Below are positions 12,609 through 14,709 of a stretch of 56,663 nt of DNA, piece by piece. The notes beneath the pieces were generated by a model. That model ran no database searches and was not told the DNA's origin. It saw only the letters and a program-made list of their open reading frames with translations. Numbering within the stretch: the first letter of the stretch is position 1; each line of letters starts with the position of its first letter. The position numbers and the translations under genes were made by a program. The stretch comes from an uncultured Dehalococcoidia bacterium (GTDB lineage Bacteria; Chloroflexota; Dehalococcoidia; Lucifugimonadales; QGNO01): the NCBI GenBank assembly GCA_964450505.1, contig CAYVEN010000001.1, positions 1-56,663 on the forward strand, written 5' to 3'.

Positions 12609-12637
12609 TTGGAGGTGTCTCTTGCAAGTGATATTAT
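12609..12637 (+). promoter_or_regulatory. Promoter candidate for the PLD-NTPase gene
   Basis: TTGGAG, a 17-nt spacer, then TATTAT, in an AT-rich divergent intergenic region. AGGAG lies 6 nt before the GTG start at 12682. Confidence 0.4.
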
Positions 12638-12681
12638 GGAACTCTGCCAAAGGTTGTACCTGATAGTTCTTAGGAGAGAAA

Positions 12682-14709
12682 GTGGCTCAGCAACGTAGAC
12701 TTGGCTTTGACGACCCAGACTCTCTAACCCGCGACGCCGGGCTTTCGGTCGTTCACGCCAACAGCGAGAGCGTGGAGCCATTCGACGTCAGCATGTTTGC
12801 AGGATTCAGGTCGATGCGGGCGCTGACATACACGGCGAGCATACGGATGATCGTCGGGCTTCTAAAGGACCACGAGTACGGCGACTTCGAGTGCATCTTC
12901 GGCCACTCGGGGATCCTGAGATCGGACATCAGCGACGTTTTGGCTTTCCAGGGAGTGGTCGAGACAGAACTGAGCAAAGCCTTCGTAGCTATCAAGACTT
13001 CTGACGAGCGACGGCAGGCACTGTTCGACCTCGTCGCCAGCGAGCGGGCACGCTTCTTCGTTGTGAAAGACAAGATTGCCCACGCAAAGATATACCTGCT
13101 AGAGCGTGAGGGACTGCGTCGGGTGATAGTCGGCTCGGCGAATCTGTCGGAGACGGCCTTCTCCGGGCGTCAGGCAGAGACGCTCATCGTATTCGATAAC
13201 GACGAGACAGCGTGGAAGCACTACATGGCACAGTACGAGGCTGTAAAGAGCACTGCTGTCAGTAGGCTGGCGCCCAAGAGCAGGCCTATTCCGGCGGAGC
13301 AGATCCCCATAGAGGAGATACCGACGCTGAGAGAAGTCAATGAGCTACAGGGGGACGTACGGATATACGTTCCCTCGGAAGACGAAGGTGAGTCCGAGGT
13401 TTCGCTGCCCAGGGTGCTAGAGACCGTGGTAAAGGTGGCCGGCCCCATACGGCGAATAATGGCAGAGGTACGGCCCAATAAAAATGGTAACGTCTCCATC
13501 ACCCCTCGCATCGTCAAGGAGTCGATCACCATATCTCGGTCTAGGGCCGGAGAGGACGAACAACCCAACGTGTATCTATCGTACGATGGACGGGAGTTCG
13601 TGTTGTCGGGCGAGGTGATGCGGCTGGAAACGAGGCCAGAAGAAGTACAAGACGACGTGGCACACTGGCTGGAATTCTTTGGGAACTACGAGAACGGATT
13701 CAAGGGCGACGTACCCCGGCTGCAAAGAGACTATTTCACGTTCATGAGCTGGTTCTACTTCTCTCCCTTGCTCTGCGACGTTCGCAACTCGGTGCTGCGC
13801 TCAGGAAGCTTCAGCTTCGAGCAGCCCATGTTCGCTGTACTCTACGGGTCGAGCAACTGCGGGAAGACGAGTCTGATCGAGACGCTGATGCACTCGATGT
13901 TCTCGTACCCGCGCAGTGTCGGGACCGAATACTTCACACGAGTCAACCTGCGGGCGCTTCAAGGATCTTTCAAGCGCCTGCCCATCTTCTTCGACGACCT
14001 CACGAGAGATCGGTTTAACCGCCATGCCGAGGAGGTCATAAAGCAGGACTACATCACCGACCCTGAATATCCGTGCTTCGCCCTGTCTATGAATGCTGAG
14101 GCGCGCAACTTCAAGGACGAGATCGTGAAGCGGTGCCTTATGATCTACACGCGCACCTCGCTGCCAGGCGACCAGCCGTTGGTCAAGAGGAAGCTTCAGC
14201 GGTCCATCGCCAGGATACGGGAGAAGATGACGACGGCTCTCTATCGCGAGTACCTGAGAAGGATTGTCAAACAGGTAGACGGGCTCAGGGAATCAGGGCA
14301 CGAGGCAGTCGCCGATGCCGACGTACTGGAGCTGTCGTCGATGGTGCTGTGCGATGTCTTCCGAGAGCACCTGCCGGACGGCGTTGCGATGCCGGACTGG
14401 TGTAGGCCAATGACCCTAGAGGAGTACCAGCAGCGAGCATGGGACAGGCCGCGGCAGGTGCTTGAGACCCTCCTGAGCCGCGACAGTTACACAAAGGAAC
14501 GGAAGCCATCAGAGGGTGCCTGGACAGTATCGGGCGGCTTGGTCATCGTGGGCACGGGGCAGATGGGCGCATCCCGCATACGCAACGAGATCCCGGATTG
14601 GATATTGGACGATACTGCTTCAGTGGCGAACCAGATTGGCCTGAAGCGCAACGAGGTTGAGGACTTTCTTGGTCGCAAGCTGCTAAAGCGAATGTGGATT
14701 TTCTGGTAG
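12682..14709 (+). CDS. Uncharacterised fusion protein: N-terminal single-HKD phospholipase-D-family (nuclease-type) domain plus C-terminal P-loop NTPase with SF3-helicase-like motif spacing
   Basis: 675 aa. The HKD-like motif AHAKIYLLEREGLRRVIVGSANLS lies at nt 13081-13149 (Asp position occupied by Glu). Walker A is YGSSNCGKTS (core at nt 13846-13869), Walker B is LPIFFDD (core IFFDD at nt 13984-13998), and an S-M-N triplet sits at nt 14086-14094. The coding call is strong (long ORF, SD, codon style). The functional call rests on motifs only. Confidence 0.6.
   Translation: MAQQRRLGFDDPDSLTRDAGLSVVHANSESVEPFDVSMFAGFRSMRALTYTASIRMIVGLLKDHEYGDFECIFGHSGILRSDISDVLAFQGVVETELSKAFVAIKTSDERRQALFDLVASERARFFVVKDKIAHAKIYLLEREGLRRVIVGSANLSETAFSGRQAETLIVFDNDETAWKHYMAQYEAVKSTAVSRLAPKSRPIPAEQIPIEEIPTLREVNELQGDVRIYVPSEDEGESEVSLPRVLETVVKVAGPIRRIMAEVRPNKNGNVSITPRIVKESITISRSRAGEDEQPNVYLSYDGREFVLSGEVMRLETRPEEVQDDVAHWLEFFGNYENGFKGDVPRLQRDYFTFMSWFYFSPLLCDVRNSVLRSGSFSFEQPMFAVLYGSSNCGKTSLIETLMHSMFSYPRSVGTEYFTRVNLRALQGSFKRLPIFFDDLTRDRFNRHAEEVIKQDYITDPEYPCFALSMNAEARNFKDEIVKRCLMIYTRTSLPGDQPLVKRKLQRSIARIREKMTTALYREYLRRIVKQVDGLRESGHEAVADADVLELSSMVLCDVFREHLPDGVAMPDWCRPMTLEEYQQRAWDRPRQVLETLLSRDSYTKERKPSEGAWTVSGGLVIVGTGQMGASRIRNEIPDWILDDTASVANQIGLKRNEVEDFLGRKLLKRMWIFW

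Follow-up and report, generated by a model that had tools for sequence, protein, structure and literature searches.

A solitary bacterial gene joining a restriction-type phospholipase D nuclease to a predicted AAA+ ring helicase, and its tentative role as a restriction-like barrier

Phospholipase D (PLD) nucleases with a single HKD motif, such as Nuc and BfiI, use two chains for each active site and cut DNA without metal through a covalent phospho-histidine intermediate. SauUSI has a superfamily 2 (SF2) helicase-like ATPase as its motor and, at the C-terminus, an SRA-like domain that reads modified cytosine, and NgoAVII and CglI possess a methyltransferase and a B3-like DNA-binding domain. In Azaca and Mokosh, a PLD nuclease is coupled to a nucleoside triphosphatase (NTPase) motor for DNA targeting (bioRxiv 10.1101/2025.07.10.664194). 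Cch and SaPI Rep are self-loading, three-tier hexameric 3'->5' helicases whose C-terminal winged helix reads an origin just downstream of the gene, and phage and plasmid primase-helicases carry modules of the Cch/Rep kind joined to further catalytic domains (PMC9371898, PMC7581432). Cch and Rep themselves reside in mobile-element replication operons, with iteron origins just 3' of the gene (PMC7581432). Here, a stretch of 56,663 nucleotides (nt) from an uncultured Dehalococcoidia bacterium (GenBank assembly GCA_964450505.1, contig CAYVEN010000001.1, positions 1 to 56,663; hereafter the window) was analysed with respect to one gene, in which a PLD nuclease is fused to an AAA+ ring helicase. An earlier inspection of the letters by a model (the sequence-only reading) had proposed this gene as a single-gene defence or DNA-processing module. 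The analysis gives good support to its product as a stand-alone ATP-driven oligomeric nuclease-helicase. That this enzyme serves as a restriction-like barrier to phage, plasmid or other mobile DNA entering the cell, being accessory and exchanged among habitat-sharing bacteria, is our tentative preference, held at a little short of an even chance.

The gene and the parts of its product, in amino acids (aa), are located in the window as follows.

12682..14709, + strand: open reading frame (ORF) of the PLD nuclease–AAA+ ring-helicase fusion, 675 aa, GTG start, stop codon included
12739..13257, + strand: PLD (HKD) nuclease domain, about aa 20-192, from RE_NgoFVII, PLDc_2 and Foldseek
13078..13149, + strand: HKD motif AHAKIYLLEREGLRRVIVGSANLS, aa 133-156, with H134 as the presumed nucleophile
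13264..13566, + strand: variable linker, aa 195-295, the least conserved stretch, with a predicted local distance difference test score (pLDDT) <50
13567..13821, + strand: helicase N-tier, aa 296-380, in which the models show three short strands plus two long helices
13822..14181, + strand: AAA+/superfamily 3 (SF3)-like P-loop core, aa 381-500, from conservation, structural matches and a weak match to Pfam RNA_helicase
13843-13872, + strand: Walker A, YGSSNCGKTS (aa 388-397)
13978-13998, + strand: Walker B, LPIFFDD (aa 433-439)
14086-14094, + strand: sensor-1-like S-M-N (aa 469-471)
14131-14133, + strand: candidate arginine finger, R484
14182..14706, + strand: helical lid and small alpha/beta winged-helix-like C-tier, aa 501-675, pLDDT 70-96

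There is strong support for a PLD domain of the restriction-endonuclease type, containing one HKD motif, in the N-terminal ~190 residues. Pfam RE_NgoFVII matched the window protein at 29.7 bits (cut-off 23.8), and PLDc_2 fell slightly under its cut-off (26.4 vs 27). For the wider family, conservation was read from two alignments, one of 23 close homologues (57-100% identity) and one of 48 diverse homologues (to 22% identity); PLDc_2 matched 47 of the latter and RE_NgoFVII 42. By Foldseek, the PLD domain of the structural model, in which pLDDT is patchy, was aligned with R.NgoAVII (4rct_A) at a probability of 1.00. The single-HKD PLD nuclease domain recognised by the sequence-only reading was therefore confirmed, and placed in the restriction-enzyme subfamily by the RE_NgoFVII match above cut-off. 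Its motif residues H134, K136 and G151-S-x-N154 are present as described and conserved; E141, which had been put in the Asp position, is not conserved and is replaced by K in three of the 23 homologues. By analogy with characterised single-HKD enzymes, the domain would act as a nuclease through a phospho-histidine on H134.

The C-terminal ~380 residues (aa 296-675) are strongly supported, on predicted structure, as a three-tier ring-helicase module composed of an N-tier, an AAA+ core, and a lid with a winged-helix-like C-tier. Mobile elements encode this module in their self-loading initiator helicases (Cch, SaPI Rep and D5/P4 primase-helicases). When this part was modelled separately with AlphaFold, its sole strong neighbour in the PDB was Cch (5dgk_A; Foldseek E 1.7e-5, probability 1.00, TMq 0.37, sequence identity 16%), and the 404 aligned columns spanned the N-tier, the lid and the C-tier. 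Among viral predicted structures, the nearest were phage Toprim/primase-helicases, a 'ring-shaped helicase', DNA helicases and D5/P4-type primases. With the full model, SV40 large T antigen, poxvirus D5 and E5, and NrS-1 were retrieved at probabilities of 0.4-0.96 (E 1e-3 to 2e-2), amid ClpB and RuvB. At the sequence level no PDB chain was matched by the window protein: a search of solved structures returned nothing with the single protein and, with the 48-member profile, insignificant P-loop and NucT matches only, 5dgk_A being the top helicase match (E 0.26, insignificant alone). No DUF927 match was found at E up to 1 in the window protein, nor among the families listed for the 48 members.

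Walker A, Walker B and S-M-N were found at the residues named by the sequence-only reading and are conserved. The spacing from K395 to D438/D439 and on to N471 is 44 and 32 residues, R484 is invariant, and SF3 motif B' was not identified in the P-loop core. Pfam RNA_helicase, an SF3 family, gave an insignificant match to the window protein (E 0.15; 13 bits vs a cut-off of 21.5) and was the commonest weak P-loop match among the 48 members (six of them, best E 1.8e-4). The SF3-like motor proposed earlier is thus upheld by the spacing of motifs A, B and C and by these weak matches, but no SF3 profile was significant and the best structure is the SF6-like Cch; the assignment of the P-loop to the SF3/SF6 AAA+ helicase world is supported. 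The middle ~200 aa and last ~180 aa, in which nothing had been recognised, are modelled as holding the N-tier (296-380) and the lid and C-tier (500-675), leaving only 195-295 as a variable linker of low model confidence. Within the C-tier, an IPDW motif (aa 637-640) is invariant among the 23 homologues, and L642, T645 and V648 are nearly invariant.

Homologues were searched for in 5.8 billion proteins, and >1000 were found. The best 120 are 57-100% identical and almost all ~675 aa long, and an exhaustive hidden Markov model search gave 317 clusters (50% identity) at E <1e-30, mostly of 650-700 aa with the same architecture from end to end; some distant members (~760-800 aa) have an extra N-terminal excisionase-type helix-turn-helix domain (HTH_17). 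H134, K136, G151, S152, N154, G389, S391-K395 and S469 are invariant in the 23 homologues, and D438, D439, M470 and N471 are nearly invariant. In the 48 homologues H134, K136, S152, N154, S156, G389, G394, K395, P434, N471 and R484 are invariant and D439 nearly so, the HKD and Walker residues thereby being conserved across the diverse set. A recent Pfam model, PF27394 ('Aq_aa27'), covers the family as a precomputed label, and the NCBI names are generic ('NgoFVII family restriction endonuclease', 'restriction endonuclease PLD domain-containing protein' and 'phospholipase D family protein'). No publication on the family was found by literature searches (NgoFVII + P-loop, aq_aa27, PLD + SF3 + mobile). 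The sequence-only reading had not recognised the architecture as a named family; this holds for defence families and for characterised members, of which none was found, and is to be corrected for the Pfam model and the generic NCBI name.

In PADLOC (PADLOC-DB 2.0.0, 2023), the matches to the window protein that involve PLD models extend over no more than the ~45-residue HKD motif (ZacB, aa 134-179, E 1.8e-6; DrmC, E 0.012), the ZacB match recurring in 19 of the 48 members; mad8 of MADS weakly matched aa 376-549 (E 4.4e-4) and 3/48 members, and the text of the MADS preprint gives no domain description for mad8. With HKD-motif matches of this kind and no partner genes, the protein does not belong to a defence system covered by that release. 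When PHROGs, NCBIfam and PADLOC were applied to the protein and the 48 members, no full-length family was obtained.

The genes are under strong purifying selection, and are full length, in hundreds of lineages. The ratio of non-synonymous to synonymous substitution (dN/dS) was 0.06-0.19 in all five protein regions in 20 pairwise comparisons; the linker (aa 195-295) had the top dN of all regions, its dN/dS still being <0.3. Full-length ORFs were present in 79 of 83 related loci, and the window copy is intact. These results bear on the alternative offered by the sequence-only reading, that the gene is a relic, now in decay, of a mobile element which has been lost and whose replication or processing it once served. 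Mobile-element replication proteins are indeed the relatives of the helicase module, but intact and full-length reading frames and the low dN/dS make a dead relic highly improbable. The same strong and uniform selection, together with 60% protein identity between phyla, would suit a host DNA-maintenance enzyme acting at stalled forks, gaps or unusual structures, Dna2/AddAB-like, non-essential and patchily kept; on the evidence from its distribution given below, this explanation is quite unlikely.

The gene was then placed among its flanking features and expression signals.

12613..14763, + strand: lineage-variable segment carrying the gene, i.e. the ORF with ~66 nt upstream and ~55 nt downstream
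12609..12637, + strand: promoter candidate, -35 TTGGAG at 12609-12614, 17-nt spacer, extended -10 TGaTATTAT at 12629-12637
12672..12676, + strand: ribosome-binding site AGGAG, 5 nt 5' of the GTG, read from the sequence
12048..12572, - strand: beta-class carbonic anhydrase gene (Pro_CA), left flank, outside the unit
14785-14813 and 14837-14951, + strand: promoter-like site and S-adenosylmethionine (SAM) riboswitch, right flank belonging to the mtnA operon, outside the unit

As had been proposed, an intact 675-aa ORF stands alone between the carbonic anhydrase gene and the SAM-riboswitch operon, the riboswitch scoring 85.4 bits vs a gathering score of 44.4. The carbonic anhydrase gene is retained in relatives both with and without the PLD-helicase gene, and the mtnA promoter-like site and riboswitch are kept in relatives without it. 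Three such gene-less relatives (L098, L099 and L100) have MtnA proteins 91-94% identical to that of the window, and in every comparison with them the DNA homology ends at 12612-12615 and restarts at 14764-14774. At the gene's site, L100 (5104-5718) contains 615 nt of unrelated, G-rich and repeat-rich DNA, and L099 (918-5758) contains 4.8 kb with DUF805, two insertion sequence (IS) transposases and a SocA/Panacea gene; in L098 the upstream region is different. In the sister genome L076, a Dehalococcoidia chromosome, the flanks of the window are 86-90% identical in DNA and the gene is at the identical site in the same variable segment, the copy having frameshifts and a ~60-nt deletion with intact neighbouring genes. 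The intergenic site between the carbonic anhydrase gene and the mtnA riboswitch is a variable hotspot in this Dehalococcoidia lineage. The hotspot, the IS elements of L099 and the frameshifted copy of L076 are features that a relic would also show, and presence, absence and decay in such close relatives speak against a maintenance enzyme. A clean empty site for the window was sought and rejected, the closest gene-less relatives having unrelated DNA at the site (615 nt in L100, 4.8 kb in L099); therefore only the borders of the variable segment were set, and no insertion event.

The ribosome-binding site AGGAG is present as described. For the promoter, which had been regarded as the gene's own, the TTGGAG/17-nt/TATTAT arrangement (-10 hexamer at 12632-12637) is present with an extended -10, but it was not called by a consensus promoter scan because its -35 fits the consensus at just 3/6 positions, and it is kept as a candidate only. 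Extended -10-like elements, TGATAAAAT and TGCTATGGT, accompany the gene in two other clades. The GC content of the gene is the same as that of its flanks, which is in keeping with a maintenance enzyme.

Several further observations were made around this site. A GmrSD_C gene is located in L100 (540-1556), 3.5 kb upstream of the site, and a ~45-nt repeat containing a hairpin (CACCACCCC...GGTTCCCG...CGGGAAC...) occurs twice in the 615-nt DNA of L100. The SAM riboswitch leads a conserved methionine-salvage/SAM-cycle operon (window 14837-19210; L097-L100) of mtnA, the methylthioadenosine (MTA) phosphorylase gene mtnP, rhodanese, a small basic protein and ahcY, after which metK comes in relatives. 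A Lys/Arg-rich 135-aa ORF (window 17393-17800) lies between rhodanese and ahcY, with the internal repeat ...AEEKPKRTRR... occurring twice, and a similar-sized gene (129-140 aa, no Pfam match) occupies its place in relatives. To the left, a ZnuA-like binding protein (window 10620-11945) has a Thr/Pro-rich N-terminal part and a long acidic His-rich insert, and diverges faster than its neighbours (70% vs ~90% identity to L076). Between the ZnuA-like and carbonic anhydrase genes, L076 (4970-7359) has ~2.4 kb of extra DNA, vs ~90 nt in the window (11948-12038).

The genomic neighbourhood across the family was examined by clustering four genes on each side of the 83 loci and by a Pfam scan of 144 immediate neighbours. 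The largest neighbour cluster comprised six loci, all syntenic relatives, and a conserved partner gene was rejected, no neighbour family being common to more than 6/83 loci. Neither a methyltransferase nor an integrase recurs beside the gene in the 83 loci, and no integrase, primase, partition or other element gene is recurrent there, which is a further point against a relic; homologues are likewise not situated inside replication modules of mobile elements in these loci. Integrases and transposases were not enriched among the 144 neighbours, and defence or toxin-antitoxin genes were few (GmrSD twice, AbiEii twice, PIN twice and a type I R subunit once). The HTH-bearing branch is also solitary. 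Distant homologues (20-28% identity) were found in accessory regions, rich in toxin-antitoxin genes, of Acetobacter and Komagataeibacter plasmids, next to parAB on an Arcobacter plasmid, and, as an apparently IS-truncated 370-aa C-terminal half beside a transposase gene, on a Thermus plasmid; these plasmid homologues have no recurrent partner gene. The sequence-only reading had described a self-contained gene with no methyltransferase, integrase or partner adjacent, and this proved true of the window, the 83 loci, and, as regards a partner, the plasmids and the HTH-bearing branch. No match was found in 50,697 phage GenBank records, nor in an IMG/VR scan with the alignment of closer homologues; a phage or prophage origin was rejected on these results, and they also disfavour a relic.

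In two arrangements, the gene is repeatedly located at a copper-ATPase (HMA/E1-E2)–YHS gene pair (L002:9603-14537; L085-L094; L016, L020, L021, L023, L025 and L045). In one Dehalococcoidia clade it lies directly 3' of YHS in the same orientation, 15-90 nt behind, and in L002 it is placed between the copper-ATPase and YHS genes but points the other way; this recurrence could be a target preference or a coincidence. An unusual DNA-processing gene cluster was seen in L105 (12451-18080): after an HTH_17-bearing homologue come, in this order, a gene for a DinG-like RNase_T+helicase, a tandem array of three OGG_N/HhH-GPD glycosylase genes and a staphylococcal-nuclease-like gene. A maintenance enzyme would be at home beside such an exonuclease-helicase and OGG-type glycosylases and among housekeeping neighbours; against it stand the lack of any conserved genomic position or partner, the extensive turnover of context, the plasmid homologues, and a PLD subfamily that is that of restriction enzymes.

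Hosts were surveyed with one genome per species in 185,579 species representatives, among which 115 relatives were confirmed, a patchiness that also tells against maintenance. The 80 loci kept are from Dehalococcoidia/SAR202, Latescibacterota, Gemmatimonadota, Binatia, Gammaproteobacteria (Pseudomonadales, Azotimanducaceae), Bryobacterales and metagenome-assembled genomes (MAGs) labelled 'Deltaproteobacteria'. Two SAR202 bins, 87 and 90, were derived from the sponge Aplysina aerophoba, and the names of several other MAGs suggest sponge work; many hosts are probably sponge symbionts.

The gene is accessory and horizontally exchanged. In 76 pairs of loci the genes are >=80% identical in DNA, and ~50 of these pairs are without any flanking homology, the shared DNA starting 0-230 nt 5' of the called start and ending -33 to +117 nt from the stop. 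One Dehalococcoidia copy on a chromosome shares 73% protein identity with a copy from Latescibacterota and is 30% different from the copy of its own syntenic relative. Where copies >=90% identical occur in unrelated contexts, homology extends from 42-230 nt upstream to 0-117 nt past the stop; bin90 has copies in four contexts (93% identity), bin87 has three contexts and a 460-nt fragment, and 91-93% identical copies lie in three contexts in MAGs labelled Binatia, Bryobacterales and Deltaproteobacteria, two of which are short contigs, possibly mis-binned. The bin87 fragment (L049:5217-5669) is part of a second copy located 2.3 kb 5' of the intact copy, and is 84-86% identical to nt ~157-616 of the paralogues.

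Gene-sized units of shared DNA of this kind are what would be expected of a minimal selfish element whose protein is a Rep-like mobilisation enzyme, an explanation that we consider unlikely. In its detailed form, which is no likelier, the PLD domain would nick in or near the gene and stay attached via phospho-histidine, the helicase would load itself and unwind, and strand transfer by the PLD domain would reinsert the gene. BfiI reportedly catalyses DNA transesterification. The architecture parallels that of HUH-SF3 Rep in joining a covalent-intermediate nuclease to an initiator-type helicase, the excisionase-type HTH_17 of some distant members would also fit, and rolling-circle elements too lack inverted repeats and target duplications. 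However, inverted repeats, target duplications, conserved ends and hairpins were sought in three groups of near-identical copies and none was found, short repeats being at chance level only, and no terminal sequence is conserved; a 14-nt end-to-end direct repeat in L077 was rejected as it was not reproduced in sister copies. Upstream regions are not conserved between clades or family-wide, one clade lying 15-90 nt behind YHS as noted above. The ends of the shared DNA vary, and in the bin87 group they coincide with the ribosome-binding site and the stop codon, which allelic replacement inside the ORF explains equally well.

Copy number is also unfavourable to a Rep-like element. Each chromosome-level assembly in the 80 loci kept has one copy, and co-binned copies differ by a synonymous divergence (dS) of ~0.25; therefore none is recent. 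Occurrence of one exact protein on 22 contigs was considered as a sign of recent transposition and rejected, the context being the same in 10/10 places shown. As for the multiple contexts within a bin, five marker genes are duplicated in bin90 and one in bin87, and bin90 may mix genomes. For the movement of the gene, de novo insertion of a gene-sized unit fits, and so does allelic replacement in which homologous recombination takes place within the conserved ORF.

A restriction-like barrier was favoured because the PLD domain belongs to the restriction-enzyme subfamily and the protein as a whole is laid out like SauUSI, because the gene is an accessory one with a patchy distribution and horizontal exchange, because in this lineage it occupies a variable hotspot, and because plasmid homologues are found among toxin-antitoxin modules. 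Several results weigh against a barrier or against the enzyme as modelled. The known relatives of the helicase module are mobile-element replication initiators and not defence motors; no modified-base reader domain was recognisable; no PADLOC model matched along its full length in the window protein or the 48 members; and no experiments on any family member were found in the literature. Most of the 144 immediate neighbours are metabolic genes (copper ATPase, DUF4432, sulfatases, nitrile hydratase and oxidoreductases), for which reason a defence-island or mobile-element setting as a general rule was rejected. No diversifying selection was found among co-binned paralogues. The model of the whole protein is of no more than moderate quality (pLDDT 63.6), and the separate model of aa 296-675 (pLDDT 70.9; predicted template modelling score, pTM, 0.74) has a poorly modelled P-loop core. 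Of the nuclease-motor defence effector put forward by the sequence-only reading, the restriction-type PLD domain and the helicase module have thus stood, homologues do not lie in defence islands, and the defence role is one that we infer. A domesticated mobile-element origin is compatible with the favoured reading too. A role other than a barrier, a Rep-like enzyme, a maintenance enzyme or a relic is somewhat unlikely.

In the restriction-like barrier, the chains would oligomerise on DNA and spend ATP to translocate or unwind, possibly as a Cch-like hexameric ring moving 3'->5', and the oligomer would bring paired PLD domains onto the DNA, which they would cut with H134 carrying the covalent phospho-histidine intermediate. 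No methyltransferase accompanies the gene, and self-DNA must therefore be spared otherwise, for which dependence on foreign modification, on DNA structure or on a loading site may be considered.

If the defence role is true, the gene represents an uncharacterised single-gene restriction-like system with a motor from mobile-element replication, not an SF1/SF2 motor as in SauUSI, Mokosh and DISARM, and its rule for telling self from non-self without a methyltransferase would be new. The gene seems common to at least five phyla of apparently sponge-associated bacteria. Sponge-symbiont communities have been reported to be enriched in restriction systems, and a defence role would provide evidence of defence-gene flow within the sponge community, which was noted as lacking in earlier work (PMC8163846). 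If the protein is instead Rep-like, it would be a new class of transposase/replication initiator, functionally analogous to HUH-SF3 Rep and Helitron RepHel but with another nuclease fold, and a sixth DNA-transposase chemistry beside DDE, HUH, tyrosine, serine and Cas1. The protein is compact (675 aa) and highly conserved with clear catalytic residues, and the question is directly testable.

Compared with known systems, the protein shares with Azaca ZacB, Mokosh, DISARM DrmC and CglI/NgoAVII the combination of a PLD nuclease with an NTPase motor, and its modelled PLD domain is structurally similar to the R-protein of R.NgoAVII; those systems differ in being multi-gene or in using SF1/SF2 helicases, and the methyltransferase and B3-like domain of NgoAVII/CglI are not seen with the PLD-helicase. 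HUH-SF3 Rep proteins (parvovirus, CRESS-virus and rolling-circle initiators) would be similar, by analogy, in having a covalent-intermediate N-terminal nuclease and a C-terminal SF3-type ring helicase, but their phospho-tyrosine HUH nuclease is of another fold than the phospho-histidine PLD domain, and for the present family no origin-like hairpin or nick site was found and no member was found on viral genomes. Cch (SCCmec; DUF927, SF6/MCM-like) and SaPI Rep (SF3) have the same three-tier layout of N-tier, AAA+ core and winged-helix tier, whereas the PLD-helicase gene is solitary in the 83 loci and Cch itself is without a nuclease domain; no iterons were obvious by eye in the 3' tail of the window gene and the aligned flanks, no dedicated repeat search having been made on that tail. 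The closest plan is that of SauUSI (S. aureus type IV, PDB 7CLG), the top Foldseek match of the full-length model (E 2.6e-4, with an overall TM-score of just 0.14): both are one polypeptide with no cognate methyltransferase, in which the order from the N-terminus is a single-HKD PLD domain, an ATP-driven motor and a DNA-binding domain. No Pfam match to an SRA-like domain or DUF3427 was found in the window protein, and, unlike that of SauUSI, its motor is predicted to be of the AAA+/SF3-SF6 type. What distinguishes the family is the fusion of a PLD nuclease with a ring-helicase motor of the Cch/D5 type.

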